From Vicinamibacterales bacterium (GTDB lineage Bacteria > Acidobacteriota > Vicinamibacteria > Vicinamibacterales > UBA2999): a DNA stretch of 64,000 nucleotides. This document shows positions 6,255-64,000 of this stretch, one piece after another (the stretch's first letter is position 1; each line of letters begins with the position of its first letter). The notes below the pieces were generated by a model, which saw nothing but the letters and a program-made list of their open reading frames with translations, had not been told where the DNA came from and did not search any database. The stretch covers positions 482 through 64,481 of the forward strand of contig DASTZI010000221.1 of assembly GCA_035764385.1 (NCBI GenBank). The letters are read 5' to 3'. A program made the position numbers and the translations under genes.

Positions 6255-6291
6255 CGACGCGCTCGTTGGCGGCACGGCCGACGATCACACC

Positions 6292-7379: not shown

Positions 7380-7490
7380 GCGCGTTCACTATAATCTAGT
7401 GGTGAGTCCTTCCGACCCTTCGACCGGCCGTTCCGTTGTCGCGGCCGGCAGATGCGTGGTCTTCGGCTCGTGTGATTCCAGCTCCCGCAG

Positions 7491-14541: not shown

Positions 14542-14544
14542 TCG

Positions 14545-39217: not shown

Positions 39218-39234
39218 AGGGCCGTCGGTCGCCT

Positions 39235-40997: not shown

Positions 40998-41016
40998 CGA
41001 CAACAGGGTCGAGCGT

Positions 41017-45977: not shown

Positions 45978-47017
45978 CTGTGACCCCACGTGCTGACGTC
46001 GCCGGCAATGTCCGCACCTCCCGCCGCGTCGCGGACCTCCAGCAGGCCCGACGCGCCGATCTGGTCGAACGCCGATCGCGCCATGTGCAGGTGCTTCTGG
46101 GAGAAGCCGCCGGGGTCGCTGTAGAACGCGAGCGATTTCACACCATGGAACGGTGCCATGTAGGAGAAGCCACCGTAGGTGCCGACAAACGCGTCCGCGC
46201 CAGCCACGATGGCGCTCTGAATGTGCAGATTGCGTGCGGGATCGAGACCTTCAGGCAGATGGCGCACACCATGCTCGTCGACACGATCGCCACGATGGTC
46301 GTCGATGTTCAATCCCGTGGAGAGAGCCACGACCGGACCGACCGCCGCGAAGGTCCTGAGCGCGTCACGAACAAATGCGCGATTCTGCGGCGTCGCGGGG
46401 AAGCACTCGTTGAAATAGAACTTGGCCGCAACGTAGCGCGGTGGCAGGTCGAGCACGTCGGTTTTCGGGGGCGTATCGAGGCGGGCATAGCGAACATGGT
46501 TGTGAACCCACCGATCCGCTTGATGGCCCCACCAGTACGGGTTCAGCACGTCGTACATCAATGACGGGTGCAGCAGAGACCACTCGCGCACCTGCGCGTG
46601 ACGCATTGCCGCGGCGACAATCTCGCGGTCGAACTCAGTGATGCGCGTCTGCTTCTGTTCACCAAGATCCCGCACCCTTGCATCGTGCTGCTCGCGGAAC
46701 ATCTCGGCGGTGACCTGGTCGAACACGTCCGCATAGCGCGACGCGAAGGGGCGGTACCAGTTTTCCGTGCCGCCACGCGAGACGACCACGAAGCGCTCCG
46801 GATCGATCGTCAACCGCTCGGCACACCACCGAAGAAACGGCACCCAGTAAAGCAGCTCGAACCCCACCTCGCCCAGCCAAGGACCGGCGACAATTGGGAT
46901 GCCGCGTGTGGCCATCGCGGCAAGCTCGCGTTGCAGTCGCTCGCTCTTGCGCTGCGCGAGAAACGCGCTTGCCGCGCGCCGAATGGGGCGCGGCACCACG
47001 TGACGCAGCGAATTCAT
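45974..47017 (-). CDS. Family A uncharacterised putative transferase, paralogue A3 (divergent subtype)
   Basis: IVAGPWLGEVGFELLYWVPFLRW, VSRGGTENWY, LHPSLMYDVL, YVAAKFY, LNIDDHRGD, NLHIQSAIVAGADAFVGTYGGFSYMAPFHG. Confidence 0.85.
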   Translation of the reverse strand: MNSLRHVVPRPIRRAASAFLAQRKSERLQRELAAMATRGIPIVAGPWLGEVGFELLYWVPFLRWCAERLTIDPERFVVVSRGGTENWYRPFASRYADVFDQVTAEMFREQHDARVRDLGEQKQTRITEFDREIVAAAMRHAQVREWSLLHPSLMYDVLNPYWWGHQADRWVHNHVRYARLDTPPKTDVLDLPPRYVAAKFYFNECFPATPQNRAFVRDALRTFAAVGPVVALSTGLNIDDHRGDRVDEHGVRHLPEGLDPARNLHIQSAIVAGADAFVGTYGGFSYMAPFHGVKSLAFYSDPGGFSQKHLHMARSAFDQIGASGLLEVRDAAGGADIAGDVSTWGHR

Positions 47018-47712
47018 TGCCGACTGAGCAGACGTTCGGCTTCATCCCAGTCCGCCGGAGAGTCGATGCTGAGCGAGTCGGACGGATCGATGAGCAGCGG
47101 CCGGCAATCTTCCCCATAAATGCCGCCGGATTTCTCGATGGTCGAGCGCCGGAACGCGTACACCGTGCCATCGCGCGAGTAGGCCGGCCGTGCATCCTGC
47201 CGGCGGGTGACGCGTTCACCGTCAGGCAAAAACGTCTTGAGGCGCCCATCGGCGATCCGCATGACATAGTCCGGTGACAAGTGACGTGGAACTTCCACCA
47301 CCGTGACCACCGAATCGGCGCTGGTCTCGCGCAGCAGCGTCACCGCTGCGCGAATGTGATCGGGCCGTCGAAGCGGAGACGTGGGTTGCAGCAGCACGAC
47401 GATCTCAGGCGACCAACCCTGCCGCGACAACTCGGCAAGCGCATGCACGATGACGGGAACCATCGGCGTATCGTCCGCCGCCAGCGCGGCCGGTCGCATG
47501 AACGGCACTTCGAGGCCTGCACGGCGACCCTCGTCGGCAATTTCGGGAGAGTCGGTGCTCAGAATGATTCGGTCGACGACACCCGATTCGCGCGCCGCAC
47601 GCGCGGTGTAGTCCAGTAGCGAATGGCCGGCGAGCAGCTTCACGTTCTTCCGTGGAACACCTTTCGATCCGCCACGTGCAGGGACAAGTGCGAGAACCAG
47701 CTCTCGAGTCAT
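47014..47712 (-). CDS. CMP-nonulosonic acid synthetase (acylneuraminate cytidylyltransferase family), paralogue 2
   Basis: Start at MTRELVLALVPARGGSKGVPRKNVKLLAGHSLLDYT (ATG 47712, ATGA overlap). LLQPTSPLRR. About half of its positions are identical to paralogue 3 by eye. Confidence 0.9.
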   Translation of the reverse strand: MTRELVLALVPARGGSKGVPRKNVKLLAGHSLLDYTARAARESGVVDRIILSTDSPEIADEGRRAGLEVPFMRPAALAADDTPMVPVIVHALAELSRQGWSPEIVVLLQPTSPLRRPDHIRAAVTLLRETSADSVVTVVEVPRHLSPDYVMRIADGRLKTFLPDGERVTRRQDARPAYSRDGTVYAFRRSTIEKSGGIYGEDCRPLLIDPSDSLSIDSPADWDEAERLLSRQ

Positions 47713-48155
47713 CGCGTGCACGAAGCGACGGCTACTGTCGAGGGCCGATAGGCATCGATGGCTTCGATGACGTCGTCCTCTCCAATATCGGCAGCGATGC
47801 AATGAAGATGGTGCCAGCCGGGTTCATCCACGGCAGCCCCTTCACGCATCAATAGCTGGACAATCTCAGGGCGCCGCGCAAGAACCGCGGCCTCGAGCGG
47901 GGTCGCGCGACTGACAGCGAGAACGTCGGGACGCAATGCGTACTCGATGTTTGGATCCGCGCCTGCTTCGATGAGCCGCGCGACCTCTGCCTGATCCCGC
48001 AGGGCGGCAGCTTCCGCGAGCGTCAGCGGACCGCCCTGCCAGAATGTCGGTGTGTAGCCGAACACGGCCGCGCCGAACACCGCGCCGCAAAAAGCGACTG
48101 CGGCCAGCGGTGGGATGCCGGCACAGACCGCCGGCAAAGTCGTCAAGCGAGCCAC
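47709..48155 (-). CDS. Small membrane-anchored ankyrin-repeat protein
   Basis: N-terminal hydrophobic helix (IPPLAAVAFCGAVFGAAVFG), then ANK-like units (EVARLIEAGADPN; TPLEAAVLARRPEIVQLLMREGAAVD). The start is uncertain (GTG 48155 chosen; the track gives 48212). Confidence 0.6.
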   Translation of the reverse strand: MARLTTLPAVCAGIPPLAAVAFCGAVFGAAVFGYTPTFWQGGPLTLAEAAALRDQAEVARLIEAGADPNIEYALRPDVLAVSRATPLEAAVLARRPEIVQLLMREGAAVDEPGWHHLHCIAADIGEDDVIEAIDAYRPSTVAVASCTR

Positions 48156-48168
48156 GTGACTGCCGCCA

Positions 48169-49560
48169 CTAGTAGTCGATATCGAACACGCGGTCCGCCC
48201 ATCGGGGCACAAACCAGGGGTTGACGACAGGCCTAGACAAAGCGTCGGCGCGCAGCGACGAGACGAGCCGGTGAGCCGCCGGATCGTCCGGCAAGTAGTC
48301 GCGCATACCCGCCCAATCGTTGTGAAACGCGAACGCCTGGGTCCTCATGACATGGTGCACCCCGACGACGCGCACCGCCCATAGCGAGCTCGCCGCGAGA
48401 AGGACGATTGTGGTCACGAGGGCGGGACCAACGCGCCGCGCCCGAATCAGGTGATCGCGGACCGCCCAGAACGCGACGATCGCATAGCAGGCGCCCGCGG
48501 TGCTCATGATGACGTCCTTCGCGTACGCAAACGACGACACCGCACTCGCAGCAAGCAAGGCGCCGAAGATCAGGAAATCGCCGCGTATCGCTGCGCGATC
48601 GCCGTCCGTGTTGGCGCTGCCTTCACGCGACCATCGCCATGCCGTGATTGCGATCAGAACCGTCGTCAGCGTCGACGAGACGATGTTGATCCACATCCTC
48701 GGCGGAATGTCTCCATGCTGCCATCCTCGCAAGATCACGAACGTCCCGTCGCGCGGCTCCGAGAAGAGCACCGAGGATATCGATGCATACACCGTATAGA
48801 TCGTGAATCGGCTGAGGCCCGCGCCGAAGCGCTCTCGAATCTGTTCCGGTTCGAGCCGCTCCGCCAGGTACCCGGAGGCGTTCTGCGTGTCCAGCGGAAG
48901 CAGTGTGAGACGCCCCACCACGTAAACCACCATCAAAATCGTGACGCTGATCAAGGCACGATCTGAAACACCGCGACGTCCAGCAAGGCGTCCAGCCACC
49001 AGCGCGACCCACACCAGAACGCCGGATTCGAGCGTCAGGCACGCGGCGACAAACGTGAGCACTGCCGCAAGGTCGATCCAGACTCCGCCGCGGCCGCGCG
49101 ACAAAAGCATCGCCAGCAGGACGAGCCCGACGATCGGCAGATACACGTTCACGGGGGTCGCTTCTTTCACGAGACCAACAAATGTGTTGCTGCCGACAAA
49201 GACATTCAGCGCGAAGAGCGAAGCGGCGAGGTCTACGCCGCTTTCGATACGCAACGCGGTAACGAACAAGCACAACGCCGCTACCAAGAGTGCAATATGA
49301 AACGCCTTGTAAGCGACGTGCACGTGACCGCCCGACAGATCGAACAGCAGCTTTGTTTCCGCCATCCACAGCGGACGAAAATCCGTGGTTCCGATCTCCG
49401 AGGTGAAGGACGCCCACACTCCGGGCGAACGTCCGGCCTCCACAATTTTCGGTAGCGAATCCTGCACCTGCAGCGGTACGCGCAGAAGACCGTAGCCGAG
49501 CGAACCCGCCATCAGCGCCGCGCAGAAAAGAGCACACGCCCGGGGCGCCGAGATCGTCAC
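48169..49560 (-). CDS. Polytopic membrane protein (about 10 TM); candidate polymerase/ligase or GT-C-type transferase
   Basis: 463 aa dominated by hydrophobic helices, with a soluble C-terminal tail. No recognisable motif. It is the only large integral-membrane protein in the array apart from the WecA-like enzyme. Confidence 0.75.
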   Translation of the reverse strand: MTISAPRACALFCAALMAGSLGYGLLRVPLQVQDSLPKIVEAGRSPGVWASFTSEIGTTDFRPLWMAETKLLFDLSGGHVHVAYKAFHIALLVAALCLFVTALRIESGVDLAASLFALNVFVGSNTFVGLVKEATPVNVYLPIVGLVLLAMLLSRGRGGVWIDLAAVLTFVAACLTLESGVLVWVALVAGRLAGRRGVSDRALISVTILMVVYVVGRLTLLPLDTQNASGYLAERLEPEQIRERFGAGLSRFTIYTVYASISSVLFSEPRDGTFVILRGWQHGDIPPRMWINIVSSTLTTVLIAITAWRWSREGSANTDGDRAAIRGDFLIFGALLAASAVSSFAYAKDVIMSTAGACYAIVAFWAVRDHLIRARRVGPALVTTIVLLAASSLWAVRVVGVHHVMRTQAFAFHNDWAGMRDYLPDDPAAHRLVSSLRADALSRPVVNPWFVPRWADRVFDIDY

Positions 49561-50483
49561 ACCCGGTGTGGAGAGTTTTGCACGAAGCGCACTTCCCGAA
49601 GCAGCGCGTCAACCGAGGCAACCGTTGGCATCACGTCCACATTGCCGGTGCCTGGACGGCACACGTAGCTGACGTGCAGATGATCGCTGGCGTAGTCGCT
49701 ACGGAGCACTTCGAACGCCGCCCTGCGCAAGTGCGCGACGATGGTCGGTTCGGTGAGGTAGTACGGATGATCGATCTTGATCGCATCCTCAACCGACCAG
49801 TTGCGGAGATAGGCCGCCCGAAAATCGACGATATCGATGAAGAGCAATCCATCGTCGGACAGCAACTGGCGGACACGCGTCAGCGTCCCCGCAACATCGA
49901 GCAGGTGATCGACCGTCTGGCAGATGGTGACGACGTCGAAACGACGGCTCCCGAAGTCGTGGTGTTCGACCAATCCCGAGATCGTCTCGAGCCCGAGGCG
50001 CTGCGCCTGCTCGATTTCGAGCGGCGCCGGATCGATGACGGTTCCGTCCAGTCCGAACTCTCGCGCGAAGTGCGCGGCCACCACTCCCGTCGAACCTCCG
50101 ATGTCCAGCAGCGTCCGTCGTCGGGTACTGGCGGTGAAGGGCCTCAGGAATTCCGCACGTTCCACCGCATACTCGCGCTGCTCGGCCTGGATCGTGCGCG
50201 CATCGATGAGCCGGCCGTGGAACGCGCTGACGAGCGGACGATACACGCCGTTGTAGAAACGTGCGTACGCCTCCGCCGCGAGGCGCGGGTTCAGAAAGAC
50301 AAGACCGCACTGGCGGCACGCGTGCGCCTGCGCCGGGTAGCCATACCGGTCCCGATGCGTGAGGATGACGAACTGGCCTGCGCCACACAGGTTACAGGCC
50401 GTCAAGGTCTGTTTCGGCTGCGTCGCGTAGTCGTACTCGAGCGCGGCAATCCGCTCTCTGCGATCTGCTGAAACTGTCGTCAT
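49557..50483 (-). CDS. SAM-dependent methyltransferase with N-terminal Cys4 zinc-ribbon, paralogue 1
   Basis: Start at MTTVSADRR (ATG 50483, sharing 1 nt with the upstream TGA). CNLCG...CRQCGLVFLNP, then LLDIGGSTGVVAAHF, VTICQTVDHL. Confidence 0.85.
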   Translation of the reverse strand: MTTVSADRRERIAALEYDYATQPKQTLTACNLCGAGQFVILTHRDRYGYPAQAHACRQCGLVFLNPRLAAEAYARFYNGVYRPLVSAFHGRLIDARTIQAEQREYAVERAEFLRPFTASTRRRTLLDIGGSTGVVAAHFAREFGLDGTVIDPAPLEIEQAQRLGLETISGLVEHHDFGSRRFDVVTICQTVDHLLDVAGTLTRVRQLLSDDGLLFIDIVDFRAAYLRNWSVEDAIKIDHPYYLTEPTIVAHLRRAAFEVLRSDYASDHLHVSYVCRPGTGNVDVMPTVASVDALLREVRFVQNSPHRV

Positions 50484-51640
50484 CAGTACGTCAGTCTCTT
50501 CTCGATCGTCAGCTCGGCCTGCGACAGACAGTCGGCAATGCGTTCTCCAGCCCTGCCGTCGCCGTAGAGCAAGTCCCGTGACGCTCTGCCACGCTTGATG
50601 TGCGCCGCCAGGGCGTCGGTAATCTCGACGCGATCGTGGCTGACGTCTATGACGTTGCGGCCACGCTCGCGACCAAGCTGCCTGGTGCCGATGTTGACCG
50701 CAGGTACGCCCAGATAAGAACACTCGCGGATGGCGACGCTCGAATTGCCGACGATGGCTGTCGCACTACAGAGCAGGCGCAGGAAGTCCTCGGGGAACAT
50801 GTTGCGGAACAGGTGGAAGTTCTCCGGCTGCTCCCTTTCGCGGAACATCCGGATGCCTTTCGAGGTCCCGTCGGACCCCGCATCCACATTCGGCCAGAAC
50901 CACAGCACCGGAAGGCCGAAGTCTTTGACGGCATACAACGTCTCGTCGACCTGATGCCGCGCTTCTTCGTACTCGGTCGTCACGGGATGCTGCATCACGA
51001 CGAGATACCCGTTCGACAGATCGGTGGTCGGACCGACGCCGCCATATTTTCCAAACGGATCGAAATCCATCTCCGGACGCGCCGCGACTTCGGCCGCGAT
51101 GTCGATCGACGGACAACCGGTGACATGCACGTTGGCTGGATCTTCACCGAGCTTCTTGACGCGCTCACCGGCGAGATTGGTCGACACGAGATGCAGGTTG
51201 GCGAGCTTGGTGACCGAATGTCGTACCTTCTCATCGATCGAGCCCGTCACCTCGCCGCCCTGGATATGCACAAGCGGGATGTTCATGTACGACGCGGCCA
51301 CGGCCGTCGCGAGCGTCTCGTAACGATCCGCGATCGTGACCACCGCGTCGGGCTTGATGTTGTCGAACACGGTCGCCAGCTCCGACAGGCCGATACCCGT
51401 CGACTTGGCGGAGGTGACGAGGTTTTCTCCCTCGAGCACCATGTACACCCGCGCAACAATCGGAAATCCGTCGCGTTCAATCGAATGGATGGCGCTGCCG
51501 TACCGATCCAGCAGCGCCGACGCCGCAACGACCAGCTGCAACTCGAGATCGCTGTGCTGATCGATGGCTTTGAGCGCCGTACGAATGCGGGAGTAGCTCG
51601 GACGAGCAGTCACGACGACGCAGATTTTCCGTTTGGGCAA
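50483..51640 (-). CDS. neuC: UDP-N-acetylhexosamine 2-epimerase, hydrolysing (NeuC-type), paralogue 1
   Basis: KICVVVTARPSYSRI, DRYETLATAVAASYMNIPLVHIQGGEVTGSIDEKVRHSVTKLANLH, GNSSVAIRECSYLGVPAVNIGTRQ. TTG start. Confidence 0.9.
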   Translation of the reverse strand: MPKRKICVVVTARPSYSRIRTALKAIDQHSDLELQLVVAASALLDRYGSAIHSIERDGFPIVARVYMVLEGENLVTSAKSTGIGLSELATVFDNIKPDAVVTIADRYETLATAVAASYMNIPLVHIQGGEVTGSIDEKVRHSVTKLANLHLVSTNLAGERVKKLGEDPANVHVTGCPSIDIAAEVAARPEMDFDPFGKYGGVGPTTDLSNGYLVVMQHPVTTEYEEARHQVDETLYAVKDFGLPVLWFWPNVDAGSDGTSKGIRMFREREQPENFHLFRNMFPEDFLRLLCSATAIVGNSSVAIRECSYLGVPAVNIGTRQLGRERGRNVIDVSHDRVEITDALAAHIKRGRASRDLLYGDGRAGERIADCLSQAELTIEKRLTY

Positions 51641-51641
51641 C

Positions 51642-52679
51642 CTAGGCGAGTCCTTCGATGTCTTCAGCGGTCAGAACCTGATCTGCGGTGACCCGCCGCG
51701 CTAGGCGTCGGCCAATCACGTCCTCGAGTCGATCGGGCGGCAGACCGGTTCCAGGTTTCTTGATGACCACATGTTCACGTTCGATGACCGTGCCGGCTGG
51801 CAGGCTGGCGCACGCCACAAGACTTCGCGTGAACAGCTTGCGCAGCGGAGCCGTCTCCTGCGCCGATTCGTCCTTGTCGAGCGGGTGCGCGCGCATCCGT
51901 TCGATGAACCGGATCCCGTCCACAAGCTGCCGTAGTTCCTGCGTGGTAATCGAGGCGATGACATCGGGACCGAACATCTCGCGAGAAAGCGCCACGTGCA
52001 CTTCGAGCATGTCCATTCCCATCGCAGCCCCCGCGAGGCCCGGAAAGATCGTCGCCGAATGATCCGACAACCCCACCCAACAGCCATAGCGCCCGCGATA
52101 GAACGGAATCAGATTGAGCCCGATCTTCTCTGGTGGACATGGGTAGGCGGTCGTGCACTGGAAGACACCGAGATCGGCGTGGCGCGCGCGAACCCGTGCG
52201 ACGGCGCGGTCGATTTCCTCGAGCGGACTCATCCCGGTCGACAGCAACACCGGCTTCCGCGTATCGAGGATGCGATCGAGCAGTGTTGTGTTCGAGGTCT
52301 CGCCTGATGCGATTTTCCAGAGCGGGACGCCGATGCGCTCGAGCAGGTCGACGGCCTGGATTGAAAAGGGCGACGAGAGGAACAGAATGCCGCGCTCGCG
52401 CGCGTGCTCGGCCAGCCCGCGCCAGCCCTCTTCGGTGAACTCCATCCGTTTCCAGTAGTCGTATCGCGTCTTGTCCTGACGGCTGAATTTCACGCGAAAC
52501 GGTTCGGACGGCGTGCTCTCGGCCGCGGCGATGTGGGTCTGGAATTTCACGGCATCAGCGCCCGCATCGGCAATCGCATCCACAAATGCGTGTGCGAGCC
52601 CGAGACTGCCGTCGTGTGTCAGCGCGACTTCGCCGATGACGAGACTGCGGCCGGCAACAAGAAATCGCTCGGAAATCAA
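51642..52679 (-). CDS. neuB: NeuB-family nonulosonic acid synthase (bacterial NeuB/LegI/PseI type) with SAF domain
   Basis: VIGEVALTHDGSLGLAHAFVDAIADAGADAVKFQTH, WKIASGE, FQCTTAYPCPPE, GLSDHS, and a C-terminal SAF-like region. Confidence 0.9.
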   Translation of the reverse strand: MISERFLVAGRSLVIGEVALTHDGSLGLAHAFVDAIADAGADAVKFQTHIAAAESTPSEPFRVKFSRQDKTRYDYWKRMEFTEEGWRGLAEHARERGILFLSSPFSIQAVDLLERIGVPLWKIASGETSNTTLLDRILDTRKPVLLSTGMSPLEEIDRAVARVRARHADLGVFQCTTAYPCPPEKIGLNLIPFYRGRYGCWVGLSDHSATIFPGLAGAAMGMDMLEVHVALSREMFGPDVIASITTQELRQLVDGIRFIERMRAHPLDKDESAQETAPLRKLFTRSLVACASLPAGTVIEREHVVIKKPGTGLPPDRLEDVIGRRLARRVTADQVLTAEDIEGLA

Positions 52680-53734
52680 GGATTCGCCTCTTGAGCCATG
52701 AGTCTCGAGCCTTGAGCCGAACCCATTGGATCGAGCGCCCGGAGATCAAGGGCAGCGAAATGACCCGCCCCGGTCCGGTGGCATGCGCGCAGCATGACGC
52801 CGAGATGGGCATGCAGCCACTTCGGATCCATGTAGACGGCAGATGTGTTCACGCCGAGCATTGGCGCGAGCCACGCCACGCTGCCGCACGTCCCGACAAA
52901 TGCCTGCGCGCTGGCGATGATCTGAGTCTGGACGGCGAGATTGTTGTTCGGAGCCATCCATGATCGGGCGCTGATGACGCGCCCGGTCGGTCCAAACGCA
53001 TAGTCGGCGTGCTCATCAAGCGCCAGCCCAGTGTCGAGCAGGACGACGTGGGTGCGCTCGGCGAGGGTGTCGACGAACCACGCGAGCGTGCGACGCACGT
53101 CTGGTGTGTCCGGCAACGATCGCGCCGCATAGAGCTTCACCGCGACGTACTCGCGGGGAAGAGCCGCGGCATCCAGAACCTGCGGTGGCGGAATCGCCTC
53201 GAAGCGCATATGGGCATCGAGGAAGCTCTGCGCGCGCTGACCGGACCAGAAGAGCGAGAACAGGCGATACATCAACGAAGGGTGCAGTACGGCGACGCGG
53301 GTTCCCGCAACTCGCTCGACGACGTGCACCACCTCACGATCGAACGCCGAGACCTCCAACTGTTTCGTCGCGCCGCGCTCTCCGGTCCGCCGAGCGAAGT
53401 CGGCAGGGTCGATGTGATCCCAGATCTCCACGTACCGATCGGAGATGCCGCGGTACCACGACGCAACGCCCCCGCGCGAGACGGCGATCACACGCGACGG
53501 CTCGACACGAAAGGCCGCCTTGACCCATCGCAGGAACGGCACCCAGTAGAGCGCCTCGAAGCCGACTTCCGAGAGCCACGGTCCCGCAACAATCGTCTCC
53601 GCGCCGTTGACGACCGCCTCGATCTCCCGCTCGACGGCCCAGCCGGCGCGAGACCATTCGAGCTGCTCGCGTATCTCCGCGCGGTGGCGGAGTGCATCGC
53701 GCAACGGCCGCTTAGCTCTTCGCAACAAACTCAT
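52676..53734 (-). CDS. Family A uncharacterised putative transferase, paralogue A4
   Basis: Start at MSLLRRAKRP (ATG 53734, overlapping the upstream gene end by 23 nt). IVAGPWLSEVGFEALYWVPFLRW, VSRGGVASWY, LHPSLMYRLF, YVAVKLY, LALDEHADY, NLAVQTQIIASAQAFVGTCGSVAWLAPMLG. Confidence 0.85.
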   Translation of the reverse strand: MSLLRRAKRPLRDALRHRAEIREQLEWSRAGWAVEREIEAVVNGAETIVAGPWLSEVGFEALYWVPFLRWVKAAFRVEPSRVIAVSRGGVASWYRGISDRYVEIWDHIDPADFARRTGERGATKQLEVSAFDREVVHVVERVAGTRVAVLHPSLMYRLFSLFWSGQRAQSFLDAHMRFEAIPPPQVLDAAALPREYVAVKLYAARSLPDTPDVRRTLAWFVDTLAERTHVVLLDTGLALDEHADYAFGPTGRVISARSWMAPNNNLAVQTQIIASAQAFVGTCGSVAWLAPMLGVNTSAVYMDPKWLHAHLGVMLRACHRTGAGHFAALDLRALDPMGSAQGSRLMAQEANP

Positions 53735-56369
53735 GATGCGCGACGCCGAAACCGAGTCGAAGCATGTCCACCGAACGCAGATCGAGCTCGACGAAGCTTC
53801 CCTTCCGAAGCCCTGAAAACACACGCTTGGCGACTTCGAGATGGTCGAACCGGAAACCCGTGATGTGCGAGTAAAACGTCAGCGCGTGCGTTCCCGACAG
53901 CGGCGCGACGTACGAGAACCCGCCATACGTCCCAACGTAGGCCTCGGCGCCGGCAATGACACGTGTCTGCACGTCGAGATTGGTGGCCGGCGTCATCAAA
54001 TGATCGATCGTGTGAATCCGGCTGCGATTTCCTCTGGCGATGTCGGAGTGATCGTCGAAGCGATGCGGCGTGTTCAGCAGGACCACGTCCGTGTGACGCG
54101 TCAGCTCGTCGAGATACGACGCGACGAACGCGTGGTTTTCGGGCGTGTCGGGCAAGGCCGTATTGCTGTAGAACTTCGCTGCCACGTATCGCTGCGGCAG
54201 GTGATTGCGCAATTCGCCGGGGTCGACCGGCGGCAGGGCTCCAAACGACGTGAATGCCTCGATGAGCGTCACCGGCACGCGCTGGAACCAGAAATGATCG
54301 AACAGACGATACATGCTCGACGGGTGCAGTAGACGCACTCCGCTCAGACCGCGCTTCTCGGTGACCTTCGCAATGATCTCGCGGTCGAAGCTTGACACCT
54401 CAACATGCTTGAGGCGACCACGCTGTTCGACGATGCGTGCCTCGTTGCGCACGCGGAACTGTTCGGGCGAATAGAACGAGAGCACGTCCTCGTAGTTCGT
54501 CGTGATGTCGCGATACCAGGAGGCCGCGCCGCCACGTGAAATGACGACGAGTTGCGATGGGTCGAGGTTGCCGTAGGTCTTTGCCCACGTCAGAAATGGA
54601 ATCCAGTAGAGCAGCTCGAACCCTGCCTCCGAGAGCCACGGACCGATCAGAATCGGTCGGCCACTTCGTCCCAGGCCGGTAATCAACTCGCGGGTTTCCT
54701 CCGCCTCCGGAAGGTTCCATCCAGCGAGTTTTTTTGCGGGATCGCGCTGGCGCCCAGGCTTTGGTGTCAGCGCGGATGGCGGCCCCACCGGCGGCGCGGT
54801 CAGCTCTTTCTCGCCGAGCTGTTTTTGCGCGAACTGCTTGACCCAGACGAATACGCGGCGGCGGCCATCCTGGAACAGCTTCTTGATCTCCAGGCGCACG
54901 CGCTTGCGATGTGGCTGCGTGATTAGAAGGAGCTGAAGTGCTCCGACGGCGGGATACATCACCAAACGCAGCACGCGTTCCGTCACACCGACGCCGGAAG
55001 GCCGGGGAGCCGGCAACGCCACGAGCTGTTCGATCGCGTCCGCAAATCGCGGCGTCGCGGCCTGCGCCAGACCAAAGGGACGAATAAAGCCTTCGACGAA
55101 GCAGCGCGCCTTCGGGTCGCCTCCCCCTTCAGGCGCGAGCGAGTCGGCGAGCACCTGCACGTGTTCGTCGAGCGTTCGCGCGACGCGAAGCAGCCCGCCG
55201 TTCACATCCAGCAGATAGTGAAAGTGAATCGTGCCTTCCTGGTTATGCCTCGAGATGTGTTCATCGAGAACGGTGTGCACCGGCTTGCCGACGACCGCGG
55301 CTTCGAGAAACGCGCTCGTATTGAGGCCGACCACCGCCGCGCTGTAGTACATCGAGTCGAAGTAGTCGTTCTTCGCGTCATCGTCAACCGGATGGTCACC
55401 CCAGAATGCGAGGTTCCTGAAACCGGACAGATCGATCTGCTTCCACTCGTCCGGCCGTGCCGGGTGCGGCCTGATCAGGATGCCGATGTCGTGCAGGCGA
55501 GGATCGCTGCTCGTGCGAATCGCTTCAACCCAGCGCTCGACAAAGGCAGCTTCGCTTGCGGTGCCGCGGAAGAGCGACGAACACAGGTACACCACGAACG
55601 GGCGATCCGCACGAAGGCCGACGCGCGAGCAGAAGCTGTCGCGACTGCGCGACGGCGCCCGGCCAAACCACTGATCATAGGGATGTGCGCCGGTGACAAC
55701 TACCCGGTCCGCCGCGACGCCGTGCATCTCGATCGCTTCCTGCTTCTGAATCTCGTTCCACACCAGCAGGAGATCCGGCACGTTGCGAATGAGCGCTTTG
55801 CTCGACAGGTGATCCCAGCTGGCAACGGGAAGCGCCGTTCGAATCCCAAGCGCCTTGGCGGCGGCAAGGTGATCCATCTGCGGCGATCCGAGCTCGATGA
55901 GCGGAGTCACGAGCACGGCATCTGGGTGATGGCTTGCGATGTAGTGCTCGAGGTCGGTTCTCGCGGGGATGCCACGCTCGAGCGTGCGCAACAGGTGTGC
56001 GAACGTCTCTCGTGCGCCTGCGCCAAAGCGATCCGCGATGGCCACGACGCTGCGTGGCGCGCGCTCACGTGCCCGCGCGCGAATATGCGGTGTCGCCGCG
56101 TAACGCGGATCGAGGTAACGCAGATAGTCGATGCCGAGCCGCAGCCGCCGCGCGAATTCACTCCACGCACCGGGTGCGCGCCCTGGAGTCGTCGCGAGCG
56201 TGATGTTGGGAAATCGCTCCGCCAGCCGCTCAACCATCCGCCGGCCCCCCATCGCCTCCTCGCGATCGGCCGACAACGTCAGCTGGTGGCCGCGACGCGC
56301 GAGCTCTTCGATGGACGACTCGAACAGTCGGAGGTACGCATAGTGGCGAGCGAAAAACAGGATCTTCAC
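53712..56369 (-). CDS. Fusion protein: Family B domain (N-terminal, ~aa 1-450) + Family A domain (C-terminal, ~aa 555-885; paralogue A5)
   Basis: Single 885-aa ORF. B signatures: ASWDHLSSKALIRNVPDLLLVWNE, ILIRPHPARPDEW, YYSAAVVGLNTSAFLEAAVVGKPV, EGTIHFHYLLDVNGGLL. A signatures: ILIGPWLSEAGFELLYWIPFLTW, ISRGGAASWY, LHPSSMYRLF, YVAAKFY, NLDVQTRVIAGAEAYVGTYGGFSYVAPLSG. GTG start with a GTGA overlap. Confidence 0.85.
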   Translation of the reverse strand: MKILFFARHYAYLRLFESSIEELARRGHQLTLSADREEAMGGRRMVERLAERFPNITLATTPGRAPGAWSEFARRLRLGIDYLRYLDPRYAATPHIRARARERAPRSVVAIADRFGAGARETFAHLLRTLERGIPARTDLEHYIASHHPDAVLVTPLIELGSPQMDHLAAAKALGIRTALPVASWDHLSSKALIRNVPDLLLVWNEIQKQEAIEMHGVAADRVVVTGAHPYDQWFGRAPSRSRDSFCSRVGLRADRPFVVYLCSSLFRGTASEAAFVERWVEAIRTSSDPRLHDIGILIRPHPARPDEWKQIDLSGFRNLAFWGDHPVDDDAKNDYFDSMYYSAAVVGLNTSAFLEAAVVGKPVHTVLDEHISRHNQEGTIHFHYLLDVNGGLLRVARTLDEHVQVLADSLAPEGGGDPKARCFVEGFIRPFGLAQAATPRFADAIEQLVALPAPRPSGVGVTERVLRLVMYPAVGALQLLLITQPHRKRVRLEIKKLFQDGRRRVFVWVKQFAQKQLGEKELTAPPVGPPSALTPKPGRQRDPAKKLAGWNLPEAEETRELITGLGRSGRPILIGPWLSEAGFELLYWIPFLTWAKTYGNLDPSQLVVISRGGAASWYRDITTNYEDVLSFYSPEQFRVRNEARIVEQRGRLKHVEVSSFDREIIAKVTEKRGLSGVRLLHPSSMYRLFDHFWFQRVPVTLIEAFTSFGALPPVDPGELRNHLPQRYVAAKFYSNTALPDTPENHAFVASYLDELTRHTDVVLLNTPHRFDDHSDIARGNRSRIHTIDHLMTPATNLDVQTRVIAGAEAYVGTYGGFSYVAPLSGTHALTFYSHITGFRFDHLEVAKRVFSGLRKGSFVELDLRSVDMLRLGFGVAHHEFVAKS

Positions 56370-57898
56370 AGCCAGCTGACTTCGCGTCCCTCGCTATCGG
56401 CGCGCCGGAGCTTTCCTTCGATCTCGCGCTTGTTGAGCAGCAGCTTGCGACCGCGCGGGATTCGCGCCAACGCTCGTAATGTGATGAACCCGAATCGTGC
56501 GACGGTGGCCGGCGCGCTCACGGCATGCTGCGGCCGCACCGTGCCGAGTGCTTCGACCGCATCTGCGATCGCGCACGTGGCGGACATGTCGAGACCAAGC
56601 GGTCTCACGAATGTATGGACGAACTCGCGCTGTCGTCGAAGAATCTCTTGCGTGTTCCCACCCAGAATGGAGGCCAACTGCCCACAGTGTTCGGCAAGAG
56701 AGCGCGAAATGGTCAGTAAGCCTCCCTCCACGAGATATCGAAAGTGCAGCGTCCCTTCCTGATTCGGTCGAAACTCTTCGGGCAAAATGGCCAATACGGG
56801 AGGACCGACGATGCCTGCCTCGATGAACGCACTGGTGTTCAGGCCGACAACGGCAGCGCTGTAATGGAGTGAGTCGAAGTAATCGGCGCGCGACTCCGTG
56901 TCGATCGGATTGTCGCCCCATAAGGCGAGGTCGGGTACGCTTCGCCCGTCGACCTCATCCCACTCACGCTTCCTGGATGGGTGCGGGCGCACCAGGATCG
57001 CCGCGTCGCGCAGGGACGGATCCGAAGAATTTCGCAGCGCGGCAGCCCACCTGAGCACGAACTGCGCCTCCGACGGACTTCCTGGAAACAGGGCCGAACA
57101 TACCCACAGGACGACTGGCCGGCCATCGGGCAACCCGACGCGGTGCACGAAATCCGCACGGCTGCGAGAGGGGCGCTGGTCGAACCAGCGGTCGAACGAT
57201 TGTGCACCCGTCACGACCACGCGCTCCGCAGGCACGCCATGCATCTCGGTCGCTTCGCGCCGCTGCACGTCGTTCCATACGAACAAGCGATCGGGCATGT
57301 CGCGGATGATGGCCTTGCTGGACAGATGGTCCCAGCTCCAGACGCACACTGCGGTCGGGATACCGCGCGCTCGCGCGCTGCGCAACAGGTCCAGCTGCGA
57401 TGAAGGGACAAGCCCAATCAGCGGTGTGATCACCACCGCGTCAGGCGCCTGCACGTCGAGAAAACGTTCAATGTCCGGACTTGCGGGAACCGAACGATCG
57501 ATCGCGTGCAGCGCGCTCGCAAGCAGGCGGCGCGCCCGCGGCGAGCGCAGCAAGCCATGCTCGGCGAGCGTAATGAAGCCGCTCGGCGTCCGCACTTCCG
57601 CCCGTTGCCGCAGCGCGGGGGTGCCTTCGTACTGTGGCTCGAGGTAACGGAGGTAATCGAGCGTCAGCCTGACCTTAGTGGCGAGGAACCGGGTCTTCTG
57701 CTCGCGGGTGGGAACTCTCCCGTAACTGACGTTCGAATGAGCTGCCGCCAGGCGCTGGACGATCGACCCTCCACCCAGCGCGGATTCGTGGCGCTCCGCG
57801 CCGAGATGGAGCTGGTGCCCCCGTGCCGCCAGCTCGTCCACCATTGACTCGATGTTGCGGTAGTAGCCGTTGTGAAGAGCGGCGATGAGAATTTTCAC
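56366..57898 (-). CDS. Family B uncharacterised putative GT-B transferase, paralogue B2
   Basis: Start at GTG 57898 (VKILIAALHNGYYRN; GTGA overlap). WSWDHLSSKAIIRDMPDRLFVWND, ILVRPHPSRKREW, HYSAAVVGLNTSAFIEAGIVGPPV, EGTLHFRYLVEGGLL. Confidence 0.85.
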   Translation of the reverse strand: MKILIAALHNGYYRNIESMVDELAARGHQLHLGAERHESALGGGSIVQRLAAAHSNVSYGRVPTREQKTRFLATKVRLTLDYLRYLEPQYEGTPALRQRAEVRTPSGFITLAEHGLLRSPRARRLLASALHAIDRSVPASPDIERFLDVQAPDAVVITPLIGLVPSSQLDLLRSARARGIPTAVCVWSWDHLSSKAIIRDMPDRLFVWNDVQRREATEMHGVPAERVVVTGAQSFDRWFDQRPSRSRADFVHRVGLPDGRPVVLWVCSALFPGSPSEAQFVLRWAAALRNSSDPSLRDAAILVRPHPSRKREWDEVDGRSVPDLALWGDNPIDTESRADYFDSLHYSAAVVGLNTSAFIEAGIVGPPVLAILPEEFRPNQEGTLHFRYLVEGGLLTISRSLAEHCGQLASILGGNTQEILRRQREFVHTFVRPLGLDMSATCAIADAVEALGTVRPQHAVSAPATVARFGFITLRALARIPRGRKLLLNKREIEGKLRRADSEGREVSWL

Positions 57899-58924: not shown

Positions 58925-60634
58925 TCAGTGATGGCCCACCTCGATCAACCGTTTGACGCTCGCCTTCAGACGCGCGACCTGCTTGCGGGCGCTGAGACCT
59001 CGACGCCACTTGCGCCATTCCTTGGCGGCCCGTTCCTGGCGTGTTGCACGGATGATCGCTTCGCGTTCACGGTGCTCGCGCTCGCGGTAAGCGGCCCTCG
59101 CGCCGAGTATCTGTTCCTTCTGTGCACGATTGGCGCGCTCGCTGTCGTCGCGCGCGATGTCTATGGCATCCATCAGCAGCCATCTCCCGATCGCCGTGTT
59201 CGACGCAGCAATCGCGGCTCTCAACATGAGCGGCGGGTCATCGAACGTGGGCTCAGGCTGCGCATGTCCTGCGGAGCGTCCGAGCCCCTCGACCGTCTCA
59301 ACAAACCTCGGCGTTGATGGCGACTCGAGACCGCCGGGCCTGACAAACGCGGTGAGAAAGCGTCGGTTGCGCGCCTCGCGCGATCCATCGCTCTTCATGA
59401 CCCCGGCGAGGTGCGACAGATGCGAGCCGACGTCGGGCGCGGTGTGCAGCAGCCCGCCTTCCACATTCAACAGATACCGGAAATGCACCATACCGTCCTG
59501 ATGCATCCGATACGCCGGCAGCTGCATCGTCAGGACCGGCCGTCCGATGATGGCAGCCTCGAGGAACACGGTCGTGCAGAGACCCACAACGGCGCGGCTG
59601 TAGTAGATCGAATCGAAGTAGTCCGCCTTCGCGTCTGCGTCGATCGGGTTGCGTCCGCCTATCGCTACATTCTCCAAACCGTCGAGAGAAATGCCCGTCC
59701 ATTCCTTGATCCGCTCGGGGTGCGGTCGTACGAGTACACCCGCAGTCCGAAGAACAGGATCGCTGCTGGATCGAAGCGCCTGGATCCATTCCTTGACGAA
59801 CACGGGCTCCGCCGGGTCTGGAACAGGGCTCATCGCCGAGCAGACGTAGAGGACGAATGGGCGCTCTGGATCGAGGCCCACGGCGCGACAAAACTGCTGC
59901 CGCGACCGCTCCGGGTGTTTGTCGAACCATTGGTCGTAGCACTGCGCGCCTGTCACGATGATGCGGGATGCCGGAATGCCGTGCATCTCGATGGCCTCGC
60001 GCTTCTGCACGTCATTCCAGACAATCGTCACGTCCGGTTGGATGTGCACCAGCGCCTTGCTCGACAGGTGGTCCCAGCTCATGATGCAGGCGGCGGTTGG
60101 AACACCAAGCGACCGCGCGGCCTTCATCTGCTCCATCGCAAACGAGCGCGAGAAGGTCAGCGATGTCAGCAGCACAACGTCCGGCTGCTGAGCCTCGAGT
60201 AACCTGGTGATCGCACGGCTCGGCGGCAGTCTTCGCTCGATGGCCTTGAGCCACGCGGCCGTCCTGCGGTGGCCAACGACCGCCCCTCCAACACCCGATG
60301 TGATCCACTTGATGACGCGGGGTGTGCGTTCGATGTTGCGAAGGCGGAGCTTTTCAGCCGACGCATAGCGTGAATCGAGAAAGCGCACGTAGTCGAGCGC
60401 AAAACGCAGCTTCTGGGCGAGGTGGAACCATGGCTCGTCCACCGGCGACGGCGTCAGTCCGAAGCTGACGTTGGGATATTCGGCGGCAAGTCGCTCGACA
60501 AACGCCTGGCCGCCGAAGGTTTCCCGCTCGTCGGCGAGCAGGTGGACGTCATGCCCTCGCCCGGCGAGCGAACGGATGACAGACTCGAAGTTGCGATAGT
60601 TCGCAAAGTGCAGCGCCGTTAAGAGAACCTTCAT
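58925..60634 (-). CDS. Family B uncharacterised putative GT-B transferase, paralogue B3, with basic coiled C-terminal tail
   Basis: Start at MKVLLTALHFANYRN (ATG 60634). MSWDHLSSKALVHIQPDVTIVWND, VLVRPHPERIKEW, YYSRAVVGLCTTVFLEAAIIGRPV, DGMVHFRYLLNVEGGLL. Tail REREHREREAIIRATRQERAAKEWRKWRR. Confidence 0.85.
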   Translation of the reverse strand: MKVLLTALHFANYRNFESVIRSLAGRGHDVHLLADERETFGGQAFVERLAAEYPNVSFGLTPSPVDEPWFHLAQKLRFALDYVRFLDSRYASAEKLRLRNIERTPRVIKWITSGVGGAVVGHRRTAAWLKAIERRLPPSRAITRLLEAQQPDVVLLTSLTFSRSFAMEQMKAARSLGVPTAACIMSWDHLSSKALVHIQPDVTIVWNDVQKREAIEMHGIPASRIIVTGAQCYDQWFDKHPERSRQQFCRAVGLDPERPFVLYVCSAMSPVPDPAEPVFVKEWIQALRSSSDPVLRTAGVLVRPHPERIKEWTGISLDGLENVAIGGRNPIDADAKADYFDSIYYSRAVVGLCTTVFLEAAIIGRPVLTMQLPAYRMHQDGMVHFRYLLNVEGGLLHTAPDVGSHLSHLAGVMKSDGSREARNRRFLTAFVRPGGLESPSTPRFVETVEGLGRSAGHAQPEPTFDDPPLMLRAAIAASNTAIGRWLLMDAIDIARDDSERANRAQKEQILGARAAYREREHREREAIIRATRQERAAKEWRKWRRGLSARKQVARLKASVKRLIEVGHH

Positions 60635-60659
60635 CGATGACCCGCTCGGCGACGTTCCC

Positions 60660-63512: not shown

Positions 63513-64000
63513 CGGGTTCCCTGAGCATCGACGTTCTGCGCGCGCCGCGCTTCGGCACGGCGCAATGCCTTGAGACGTCGTGCTCCACGAAGCTTCTCGA
63601 CCGATGCGAGCTCGCGAGAGGAGAGCGTCCAGCGCTCGTATCGATCGTCATCGCGCATGCGTGCGGCGCGATGCGCAATCCAACGCCACATGGGGACCAA
63701 TGGACTGGAGCGCAGCACTGTTACCGTCAGGCCATTCATCGATTCGACCGCCTCGACGAACCGCTGGGCGGCTGAAACGTCGAGGCCGTGAGGCCGCACG
63801 AATTCGCGTACGAACGGCTTGATGAGCTGTTTGGGCTCGTTCAATGCGTGGTCGAGTTGTGGGATGTGTTCGTCGAAGCTGCGCGCCACCTCGAGCACGC
63901 CGCCTCCAGTGTTCAGCAGGTAAGTAAAGTGCACAGTGCCGGTCTGGTTATCGGCCGTTTCGGGAATCATCAGTGTGTGAACTGGACGACCCAGAATCGC
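63509..64000 (-). CDS. Family B uncharacterised putative GT-B transferase, paralogue B4, C-terminal part only (5' end beyond the right edge)
   Basis: The frame is open to the window edge. Own translation gives AILGRPVHTLMIPETADNQTGTVHFTYLLNTGGGVLEVARSFDEH, which aligns with B1 (AAVVGKPVHTVLDEHISRHNQEGTIHFHYLLDVNGGLLRVARTLDEH). Basic tail RRLKALRRAEARR. Confidence 0.8.
   Translation of the reverse strand, partial: AILGRPVHTLMIPETADNQTGTVHFTYLLNTGGGVLEVARSFDEHIPQLDHALNEPKQLIKPFVREFVRPHGLDVSAAQRFVEAVESMNGLTVTVLRSSPLVPMWRWIAHRAARMRDDDRYERWTLSSRELASVEKLRGARRLKALRRAEARRAQNVDAQGTR

Follow-up and report, generated by a model that had tools for sequence, protein, structure and literature searches.

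The 885-aa gene at positions 53712..56369 (minus strand) of the 64,000-nt stretch of DNA analyzed here, referred to as the window, is a genuine and widely conserved fusion of two very divergent, predicted glycosyltransferase modules, Family B and Family A. The gene resides in a cluster of soil Acidobacteria (order Vicinamibacterales) for a probable sialic-acid-like surface polymer, and the conserved fusion together with this location indicates that Families A and B are new glycosyltransferase families acting in one pathway.

A conserved fusion gene

The ORF listing and translation of the window gave a single stop-free ORF with a GTG start and a TAA stop at 53712-53714. The gene is complete, has orthologues of the same length, and encodes Family B (aa 1-455), a basic linker of 98 aa (aa 456-553) and Family A (aa 554-885) in this order. 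In a self-BLAST of the minus-strand ORFs, aa 1-449 had 50% identity to the stand-alone gene 56366-58291 (E 5e-139) and 46% to the stand-alone gene 58925-60739, and also matched the C-terminal piece 63509-63970. Residues ~550-870 matched four stand-alone genes with 34-40% identity (E 1e-57 to 1e-68; raw ORFs 52676-53824, 45974-47017, 44772-45989 and 37991-39568). Thus, the one uninterrupted B-linker-A ORF described in the initial annotation, and its statement that A and B occur as separate genes elsewhere in the array, were both borne out. The start of the fusion shares 4 nt (GTGA) with the stop of the upstream B gene, and the ATG of the downstream A gene lies 23 nt inside its 3' end.

In the rest of the array, A and B are neighbouring but separate genes and such overlapping start/stop signals are common, as would suit an assembly or frameshift artefact joining two neighbours. 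The probability of such an artefact is nevertheless negligible, because the same fusion was found in related genomes, as the initial annotation had proposed to check: more than 120 full-length orthologues from independent metagenomic assemblies (884-912 aa, 63-98% identity) share the layout, and the same continuous frame, a complete B-A gene of 860-930 aa, is present in 64 species-level genomes. The nearest relatives of the fused domains were also fused (82/82 for A and 80/82 for B), and both the A domains and the B domains of fusions constitute an orthologue group of their own, which likewise argues against an artefact. A single stop-free frame held both the B and A matches in ~70 of the 78 related genome loci, the others being contig ends and frameshift-ridden long-read MAGs. 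The linker motif is conserved as well, and the linker loop differed by 0.44/0.40/0.65 at the three codon positions, with the maximum at the third position that is expected of a translated region.

Stand-alone A and B genes occur together with the fusion in every locus, and 150 diverse representatives included 74 B-A and 24 B-B combinations, with one each of B-B-B, B-A-B, A-B-A and A-A. The B-B, A-A and mixed fusions point to multi-glycosyltransferase enzymes of modular build and not to a single obligate A:B pairing. The two families also co-occur outside this locus, side by side in Planctomycetota and Solirubrobacteraceae genomes. The functional link between A and B that the fusion had suggested is therefore retained as participation in one process, given the conserved fusion and the co-occurrence, but not as an exclusive pairing.

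Predicted folds of the two modules

Families A and B had no Pfam, above-cut-off NCBIfam or PDB sequence match, and no similarity to each other was detected (hhalign P 0.62). Calling them unknown families was an overstatement, since the AlphaFold models of both are GT-B glycosyltransferase folds, and both are predicted to belong, as highly divergent members, to the GT-B superfamily. The full-length fusion model (pLDDT 80.5) contains two well-predicted alpha/beta modules, with a pTM of 0.54 that leaves the geometry between them uncertain.

Module B (55005..56369, minus strand) was modeled as a generic GT-B fold with two Rossmann-like halves of alternating strands and helices (aa 1-235 and 258-451; pLDDT mostly 80-95). 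Foldseek matched it to GT-B enzymes in the PDB, including MshA, CalG, TagF and 2-epimerases, with a probability of 1.00 (E 7e-11 to 1e-7), and hhalign aligned residues 232-413 to WaaG 172-333 (P 8e-4). The predicted structure thus places module B in the GT-B superfamily. At the sequence level, the sole consistent NCBIfam family was NF046086, matched by the fusion B module at E 2.6e-6 and by 51/55 diverse B members (best E 1.5e-13). The three complete B copies of the window scored 26.8-29.5 bits and did not reach the 200-bit cut-off of this family, and a score of ~27 bits against 200 makes B a remote homologue of NF046086 rather than a member. PF04464 (TagB/TagF) was matched by 2/55 B members, and the KpsC/KpsS profile (Capsule_synth, PF05159) had no match among the modules or the B relatives. 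Precomputed PF02350 (UDP-GlcNAc 2-epimerase) matches exist on a few B relatives, B-B proteins among them.

The best structural matches of B were UDP-GlcNAc 2-epimerases and NeuC (target-normalised TM 0.67-0.70), which, with the PF02350 matches on some B-B relatives, would be compatible with B being a NeuC-like 2-epimerase or hydrolase that modifies a nucleotide sugar and supplies it to transferase A. We regard this role as improbable, as fusion B had no PF02350 match at E up to 1 (0/55 members at 1e-3) whereas the two genuine NeuC proteins of the cluster match at E 1e-66; furthermore, the consistent sequence relative NF046086 is a transferase family, and an epimerase role would hardly account for B-B-B triples or for three to four additional copies in each cluster.

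Conserved motifs of B are SWDHLSSK (184-191), RPHP (300-303), DYFDS (335-339), GLNTSAF (348-354) and NQEGT (376-380). The RPHP motif (R300-P301-H302-P303; 55461..55472, minus strand) has an HP dipeptide that follows strand two of the C-terminal half, and H302 is invariant in 55/55 diverse B members. For bacterial GT-B sialyltransferases (GT38, GT52, GT80), HP and D/E-D/E-G motifs have been defined, of which the HP motif, in the nucleotide-binding half, binds the CMP phosphate (PMC2169525). No D/E-D/E-G motif is conserved in aa 1-250, the acceptor-side half of B, where W185-D186-H187 forms the conserved acidic site; a conserved QEG occurs just once, at 377-379 of the C-terminal half. Invariant charged or polar residues of B include D186, H302, D335/D338 and E378.

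Module A (53715..54710, minus strand) was predicted by AlphaFold, Foldseek and hhalign to adopt a compact GT9-like GT-B fold (A-only model, pLDDT 84.6, pTM 0.86). Its best PDB match was WaaF (1psw, E 1.2e-5), followed by WaaC and TibC; 41 matches were obtained at E up to 1e-3, and among the matches listed all are GT-B enzymes, with low TM-scores of 0.3-0.48 to the GT9 structures. With E. coli GT9 WaaC/F/Q/U as the hhalign target, A residues 206-292 were in register with WaaC 200-282 (P 6e-4, probability 28%), and K732 and GTYGG in the C-terminal half of A coincided with the WaaC nucleotide-binding region. None of the 5/5 A copies of the window matched Pfam, PF01075 included, at E up to 1, and TIGR04414 gave E 0.12-0.15. 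On its modeled structure, module A would also belong to the GT-B superfamily, with a weak indication that GT9 heptosyltransferases are the closest in structure. Its conserved motifs are GPWLSE.GFE..YW.PF (576-592), SRGG (611-614), LHPS (681-684), K732, DDH (772-774), NL.VQT (797-802) and GTYGG (813-817).

With GT-B glycosyltransferases predicted for both modules, an enzyme with two activities is the interpretation that suggests itself, and the many invariant polar residues kept in both suggest that both would be active. The fusion and co-occurrence would equally fit one catalytic module with an obligate accessory subunit, that is, a non-catalytic GT-B-fold partner for acceptor binding, scaffolding or chaperoning, and no curated glycosyltransferase family matches A significantly at the sequence level. 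Such a division of labor is unlikely in view of the dense invariant charged and polar residues of both modules at positions typical of GT-B active sites, the existence of A-A and B-B fusions, and the many stand-alone copies of each family.

Linker, paralogues and genomic context

The linker contains 19 K+R versus 6 D+E (net charge +13). Its first part (aa 456-520; 54810..55004, minus strand) is weakly kept (30% identity) and forms one long predicted helix (462-518), with a net charge of +9 over aa 461-520. The only hydrophobic 19-mer of the linker, VLRLVMYPAVGALQLLLIT (aa 466-484; 54918..54974, minus strand; Kyte-Doolittle 1.76), is directly followed by HRKRVRLEIKK. This 19-mer is a probable membrane-interface anchor, and is unlikely to span the membrane because R and P break the stretch in orthologues. 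The second part (aa 521-553; 54711..54809, minus strand) is a predicted disordered loop (pLDDT below 50) with the conserved motif SALTPKPGRQRDPAKKLAGW. The residues K497, L534, P536, G539, D543, P544 and K546 of the linker are invariant.

All stand-alone paralogues in the window are encoded on the minus strand. The A gene directly downstream (52676..53734) starts at an ATG at 53734 that overlaps the fusion 3' end; the others are 45974..47017 (347 aa, P0300), 44772..45989 (~401-405 aa, P0272, with a ~100-aa basic helical leader) and 37991..39217 (408 aa as annotated elsewhere, P0271; raw ORF to 39568). The stand-alone B genes are 56366..57898 (510 aa when started at MKILIAALH; its C-terminal tail is basic and its stop overlaps the fusion start in GTGA), 58925..60634 (569 aa when started at MKVLLTALH; E, R and K are abundant in its tail of ~100 aa) and 63509..64000, the C-terminal portion of a fourth B gene, which runs past the window end. 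The basic leaders and tails noted previously were confirmed for three A proteins with K/R-rich N-terminal leaders (K+R versus D+E of 24/10, 9/2 and 22/6) and two B proteins with K/R-rich C-terminal tails (12/5 and 25/16); the leader of the fourth A protein, 52676-53824, is only weakly basic (13 K+R versus 10 D+E in the uncorrected GTG-start ORF).

A nonulosonic-acid module of five genes (47014..52679, minus strand) adjoins the fusion region, and most related loci also have this module adjacent to the fusion. It encodes a NeuB-type synthase (51642-52679), a hydrolysing NeuC epimerase (50483-51640), a methyltransferase (49557-50723), a polytopic membrane protein without family match (48169-49560) and a CMP-nonulosonate synthetase (47014-47802). 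The window as a whole contains three CMP-nonulosonate synthetases, two NeuB and two NeuC, a WecA-like initiating transferase and, besides A and B, four GT2 and one GT4 glycosyltransferases. Exporter genes of the Wzm/Wzt or KpsMT type and KpsC/KpsS-type primer genes were not found within the 64-kb window.

Across loci, the fusion is associated with NeuB/NeuC/CMP-synthetase genes and ABC exporters. Within 10 kb of the fusion, the 49 related loci of at least 20 kb contained NeuB in 43/49, NeuC in 36/49 and the synthetase in 35/49. In 11 related loci, Wzt and Wzm genes immediately precede the fusion on its own strand, and in 4 further ones they lie 7-9 kb upstream. A Planctomycetota genome has the gene order Wzt-Wzm-[B-B]-A, and a Solirubrobacteraceae (Actinobacteria) genome has B-B, B-A and A genes with ABC genes on their flanks. 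No NeuB was present within 10 kb of these A/B loci, indicating that nonulosonic acid is not the donor of B everywhere.

Proposed function and comparison with known systems

The fusion is probably a bifunctional, membrane-tethered glycosyltransferase in an ABC-transporter-dependent glycopolymer pathway. We infer its catalytic competence, donors, sequential action, membrane tethering and ABC-transporter route in this genome as follows. Two unrelated GT-B catalytic modules would be joined via the basic, partly hydrophobic helical linker, which would keep both active sites at the membrane. B, which is remotely related to the T. forsythia pseudaminic/legionaminic-acid transferases and to TagB/TagF-type enzymes, would most likely use a cytidine-nucleotide-activated donor, here a CMP-nonulosonic acid from the three synthetase sets of the cluster, and the GT9-like module A would attach a second, different sugar. 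B and A may act in succession on one lipid-anchored glycan on the cytoplasmic side of the inner membrane, and the product would be a nonulosonate-rich surface polymer, with a Wzm/Wzt-type ABC transporter as its probable exporter. Further modules of the same assembly line may be the A and B paralogues encoded as stand-alone genes, with the basic B tails and A leaders possibly corresponding to the two halves of the fusion linker.

Protein rather than a lipid-linked polymer could be the acceptor (S-layer protein, flagellin or adhesin), as A is weakly like the protein O-heptosyltransferases TibC/Aah and the nearest sequence family of B works in the T. forsythia protein O-glycan pathway (PMC5420450). 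This is very improbable given the WecA-like initiating phosphoglycosyl transferase and many sugar-nucleotide genes of the window and the polysaccharide-type Wzt/Wzm exporters adjoining the relatives, and no candidate target protein was evident.

The N. meningitidis W/Y capsule polymerases alternate hexose and sialic acid. A narrower version of the favored bifunctional transferase is a similar alternating co-polymerase, in which B-A alone would build a long heteropolymer from two sugars in turn. Two different glycosyltransferase modules on a single chain, immediately preceding Wzt/Wzm genes (11 loci and the Planctomycetota genome), B-B, B-B-B, B-A-B and A-B-A forms typical of ABC-transporter-dependent polymerases, and several cluster methyltransferases that could cap chains are all consistent with it. 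It is possible but doubtful, because nine A/B modules and five classical glycosyltransferases better fit a long defined repeat or many-step assembly, and the window yielded neither primer nor exporter genes. As an analogy, a polymerase is plausible since Wzt/Wzm exporters adjoin the fusion in relatives.

Among known systems, module A resembles GT9 WaaC, WaaF and TibC in being structurally best matched to them and of similar size (~320 aa), with the weak in-register profile match to WaaC over the nucleotide-binding half. It differs from GT9 in its TM-scores of 0.3-0.48, the lack of a PF01075 match and its own N-terminal signature, GPWLSE.GFE..YW.PF, and the window showed no genes of an ADP-heptose pathway.

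Module B compares with Tanf_01245, TFUB4_00887 and BFO_1060, the T. forsythia transferases for Pse/Leg derivatives in family NF046086. These genetically validated enzymes consist of a single module of ~445 aa and cap a protein O-glycan (PMC5420450). Module B and these enzymes are GT-B/TagB-like, carry an HP dipeptide and lie beside CMP-nonulosonate biosynthesis genes; in B, however, the D/E-D/E-G motif is unrecognisable, and the 27 bits scored against the 200-bit cut-off cover only ~80 aligned residues.

Other multi-module glycosyltransferases of ABC-transporter-dependent pathways are KpsC with its dual beta-Kdo module (PMC10148158), WbbB (PMC9587256) and the TagF-like capsule polymerases (PMC5974469). 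The A/B proteins share with them tandem, here predicted, GT-B-type modules that are variously combined and adjoin Wzm/Wzt- or KpsMT-type exporters, segments of helix or coil between or after modules, and putatively CMP-releasing donors. Their module families differ, and A/B have no Capsule_synth or other Pfam match to the models of those enzymes.

Romanow et al. reportedly described the N. meningitidis W/Y capsule polymerases as bifunctional in 2014. The module order is presumably reversed relative to these enzymes, the putative nonulosonate transferase coming first in the fusion. A sequence relationship is undetectable, a long basic, partly hydrophobic linker takes the place of the Neisseria linker, each cluster has nine A/B modules instead of a single polymerase, and the host is an environmental Acidobacteriota lineage. 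The N. meningitidis serogroup W/Y enzymes combine a hexosyltransferase and a sialyltransferase in one chain (PMC8600345), and the fusion is similar to them in its two distinct, here predicted, glycosyltransferase modules on one polypeptide, in a putative CMP-activated nine-carbon acid donor whose biosynthesis genes lie beside the gene, and in putative ABC-transporter export, with the exporters seen in related loci and none in the window.

The B-A gene, its paralogues and its linker

In the window (G+C content ~63%), genes on the minus strand follow one another over a long stretch; among them, the ORF 53712..56369 (-) starts with GTG and encodes 885 aa without an internal stop, confirming the single uninterrupted B-linker-A frame reported in the initial annotation. 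Both families were recovered by all-against-all BLASTP of the minus-strand ORFs of the window, which also bore out that A and B exist as separate genes elsewhere in the array. Family B paralogues matching fusion aa 1-449 are encoded at 56366-58291 (-; 50% identity, E 5e-139) and 58925-60739 (-; 46% identity), and a C-terminal fragment at 63509-63970 (-) represents a fourth B gene cut by the window end. The stand-alone Family A genes at 52676-53824, 45974-47017, 44772-45989 and 37991-39568 (all -) match fusion aa ~550-870 with 34-40% identity (E 1e-57 to 1e-68). The GTG start of the fusion overlaps the stop of the upstream B gene (GTGA) and the start of the following A gene lies 23 nt within the fusion 3' end, indicating that the fusion and the neighbouring A and B genes form a tightly packed operon. 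The 533-aa ORF opposite the fusion (55161-56762, +) was read not as a gene but as a shadow ORF, as is typical for coding DNA of high G+C content.

The linker (aa 456-553) contains 19 K+R vs 6 D+E, in agreement with the basic linker of ~100 aa described before. K/R-rich tails were likewise found at the ends of the stand-alone B proteins, and the basic leaders ascribed to the stand-alone A proteins were present in three of four, that of 52676-53824 being weakly basic on the raw ORF. Multiple alignment placed the A leaders on the second half of the linker and the B tails on its first half, and the orthologue alignment revealed invariant residues and the conserved motif SALTPKPGRQRDPAKKLAGW within the linker. 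A membrane-spanning linker was set aside: only one 19-mer exceeded a Kyte-Doolittle value of 1.6, this stretch is interrupted by Arg and Pro in orthologues and absent from the stand-alone B tails, and such a topology would place one nucleotide-sugar enzyme outside the cytoplasm.

Predicted folds of modules A and B

When single window proteins were scanned, A and B matched no Pfam family and gave sub-threshold NCBIfam matches only. Searching PDB sequences with the fusion or with profiles of A and B returned nothing meaningful, and tblastn of the two modules against 72,556 plasmids gave no hits. The AlphaFold model of the full-length fusion (pLDDT 80.5) comprises four regions: two alpha/beta modules (aa 1-451 and aa 554-865) and, between them, a helix of 57 residues (aa 462-518) followed by a disordered loop (aa 519-547). 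Foldseek matched module B to GT-B enzymes of the PDB, including UDP-GlcNAc 2-epimerases (E 7e-11), MshA, CalG, macrolide glycosyltransferases and TagF; an unlikely rival to the transferase reading is that B is epimerase-like. Module A modelled alone (pLDDT 84.6, pTM 0.86) best matched the GT9 heptosyltransferases WaaF, WaaC and TibC, followed by GT1 enzymes. Profile comparison with E. coli enzymes gave weak, in-register alignments of A 206-292 onto WaaC 200-282 (P 6e-4) and of B 232-413 onto WaaG 172-333 (P 8e-4), and the A and B profiles showed no similarity to each other (P 0.62). A and B, initially described as unknown families, are thus predicted by AlphaFold and Foldseek to be highly divergent glycosyltransferases of the GT-B fold that fall into no curated family, that is, new GT-B families and not unknown folds.

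In single scans of 55 diverse family members, the only family matched consistently was NF046086, the NCBIfam family of Tannerella forsythia nonulosonate transferases (51/55, best E 1.5e-13); Pfam matches were scattered, with Glyco_transf_4 in 5/55 and TagB/TagF Glyphos_transf in 2/55. NF046086 is named after BFO_1060, which is grouped with T. forsythia Tanf_01245 and TFUB4_00887, both genetically required for adding a pseudaminic/legionaminic acid derivative to the O-glycan (PMC5420450). The C-terminal half of B carries an invariant His-Pro, H302-P303. In bacterial sialyltransferases, the CMP phosphate is bound by an HP motif (PMC2169525); the motif that accompanies it there, D/E-D/E-G, is absent from B. 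At the sequence level, B is remotely tied to transferases of cytidine-activated donors.

Conservation of the fusion and module combinations

A search of 5.8 billion proteins returned >120 full-length orthologues (884-912 aa, 63-98% identity) from many independent assemblies, the named sources being mostly Vicinamibacterales. When each GTDB species was represented by one genome, 438 A relatives were identified; in about 70 of the best 78 loci, B directly precedes A and shares its frame without a stop, and the loci without the shared frame lie at contig ends or in long-read MAGs that carry several frameshifts. The search for the fusion in related genomes proposed earlier recovered a complete 860-930-aa B-A gene in 64 species genomes. 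Nucleotide differences in the linker loop at codon positions 1/2/3 (0.44/0.40/0.65) followed the pattern of translated sequence. An assembly or frameshift artefact, which would have undone the initial proposal, was rejected on the basis of these independent orthologues, the frame shared among loci, the 64 species genomes and the conserved, translated linker. The nearest relatives of fused A domains were fused A domains in 82/82 and those of fused B domains were fused B domains in 80/82, indicating by sequence grouping that the fusion is old and stably inherited and no recurrent accident. Two B-A genes per locus were present in 13 loci.

Eight loci (L002, L009, L051, L055, L056, L062, L069 and L075) share the gene order of the Vicinamibacterales loci, carry B-A genes with 48-90% identity to the Vicinamibacterales one and come from MAGs labelled as Gammaproteobacteria, Actinobacteria, Bifidobacteriaceae, Acidimicrobiia, Gemmatimonadaceae or Deltaproteobacteria; these MAGs are likely mis-binned or mislabelled.

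Clustering at 50% identity gave 5,860 representative proteins that match the fusion, none of which is assigned in Pfam, NCBIfam or PDB. The architectures of 150 representatives were 74 B-A, 47 B and 24 B-B, with B-B-B, B-A-B, A-B-A, A-A and A found once each, and the B-B proteins (~1,050-1,100 aa) make up a large separate group. Tandem A/B combinations, in proteins of up to 1,546 aa, were observed in P0122, P0123, P0167, P0176 and the 24 B-B representatives.

A and B also co-occur beyond Acidobacteriota, in a Planctomycetota contig (L080) and a Solirubrobacteraceae (Actinobacteria) contig (L081), contrary to the possibility raised initially that they never meet outside this locus. The former encodes, in order, a TagH/Wzt-type ATPase and a KpsM/Wzm-type permease (7928-9980, immediately upstream of B-B on the same strand), B-B, a stand-alone A (E 1e-120), a small nucleotidyltransferase and a methyltransferase. 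The nucleotidyltransferase (14287-14718) most resembles the HldE heptose-1-phosphate adenylyltransferase domain (a sub-threshold hit, E 2.6e-20) and, to a lesser degree, TagD (E 5e-10); an HldE-like enzyme would suit a GT9-like donor for Family A. The latter contig encodes two B-B, one B, one B-A and one transketolase-like-A fusion among ABC transporter genes. This last protein (L081:5583-7916, 777 aa) joins a transketolase-like N-terminal part to a Family A module, hinting at joint action of the thiamine-dependent enzyme and Family A, perhaps in the chemistry of sugar side chains.

Nonulosonate genes, export and a proposed role

The glycan cluster runs on the minus strand from ~15.8 kb to the window end and encodes three CMP-nonulosonate synthetases, two NeuB-type synthases and two NeuC epimerases, of which 50483-51640, the one scanned against NCBIfam, scored above the TIGR03568 cut-off. 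DegT aminotransferases, dehydratases, acetyltransferases, several methyltransferases, four GT2 and one GT4 classical glycosyltransferases, a WecA-like initiating transferase, and UDP-sugar dehydrogenase and GDP-mannose dehydratase/reductase genes are also present. The genes for a UDP-sugar dehydrogenase (15810-17105), a GFO/IDH/MocA oxidoreductase (39900-41057), a DegT aminotransferase (41017-42045) and a hexapeptide acetyltransferase (42042-42572; all -) presumably resemble a WbpA/B/E/D-type route to 2,3-diacetamido uronic acid.

Several further ORFs were recorded. A 463-aa ORF inside the nonulosonate module (48169-49560, -) has about 5-8 strongly hydrophobic segments and no Pfam/NCBIfam match, and its product may be a membrane protein resembling a polymerase, ligase or flippase. 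Cluster ORFs 25072-26946 (-, 624 aa) and 33812-34807 (-, 331 aa) likewise matched neither database. A stand-alone transketolase-like gene (27539-29503) lies beside genes for an aldehyde dehydrogenase, an SDR, NeuB and a CMP synthetase. At the cluster edge, a methyltransferase (14545-15804, +) has an N-terminal coiled-coil-like stretch that weakly matches CENPH (aa 70-173); coiled-coil methyltransferases act as chain terminators in some ABC-dependent O-antigen systems. Outside the cluster, 2091-4688 (+) encodes an 865-aa protein with AMP-binding, phosphopantetheine-binding and acyltransferase domains.

Among related loci of at least 20 kb, NeuB was found within 10 kb of the fusion in 43/49, NeuC in 36/49 and CMP synthetase in 35/49. 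No Wzt/Wzm genes were found within the window, and the upstream end of the cluster lies beyond its edge. In 11 Vicinamibacterales loci (L063, L066-L068, L070, L072-L076 and L078), genes for a TagH/Wzt-type ATPase and a KpsM/Wzm-type permease lie immediately upstream of B-A on the same strand (about 6200-8330 in those with a full 10-kb upstream flank), and in four more they lie 7-9 kb upstream.

We propose that B-A would act on a lipid-linked glycan as a bifunctional glycosyltransferase at the cytoplasmic side of the membrane, with B adding a cytidine-activated sugar, here probably a nonulosonic acid, and A a further one. Both modules would be tethered to the membrane by the basic linker and its single hydrophobic stretch, and the split linker halves of the stand-alone paralogues may serve membrane binding or mutual docking. 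Less likely readings are one catalytic module with one accessory module, and action of the modules in protein glycosylation. The functional link of A and B claimed initially is supported in its general form by the conserved fusion and the co-occurrence; its polymerase form is an analogy. That B-A may polymerise is favoured by the exporter adjacency and the multi-module architectures, whereas the large number of modules per cluster favours multi-step assembly instead.

A broader reading, possible but on balance doubtful, is that A and B are two unrecognised CAZy-level glycosyltransferase families in a modular Wzm/Wzt-coupled assembly line (mix-and-match B-A, B-B, A-A, B-A-B and so on), that B is a new cytidine-donor transferase class, and that the cluster polymer contains up to three nonulosonic acids. 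In Vicinamibacterales, B would then use CMP-activated acids of the pseudaminic, legionaminic or neuraminic type, and in other lineages different donors. On this reading, the cluster would offer a first genetic handle on the way in which abundant soil Acidobacteria make surface polymers resembling sialic acid.

Bacterial nonulosonic-acid transferases are few and poorly defined, and knowledge of them is scarce (PMC5420450). No publication that connects Vicinamibacter or Acidobacteria with nonulosonic acids or with the A/B proteins turned up in literature searches. Two large families can now be read as putative glycosyltransferase modules that, in a dominant soil lineage, go together with nonulosonate synthesis and ABC export. 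The conserved fusion is a concrete candidate for studying donor/acceptor specificity and would improve the annotation of thousands of 'hypothetical proteins'. It overturns no concept: fused glycosyltransferases are well known from surface-polymer clusters, and the whole is, as modelled, a variant of a familiar enzyme kind in which A and B are predicted new GT-B families.
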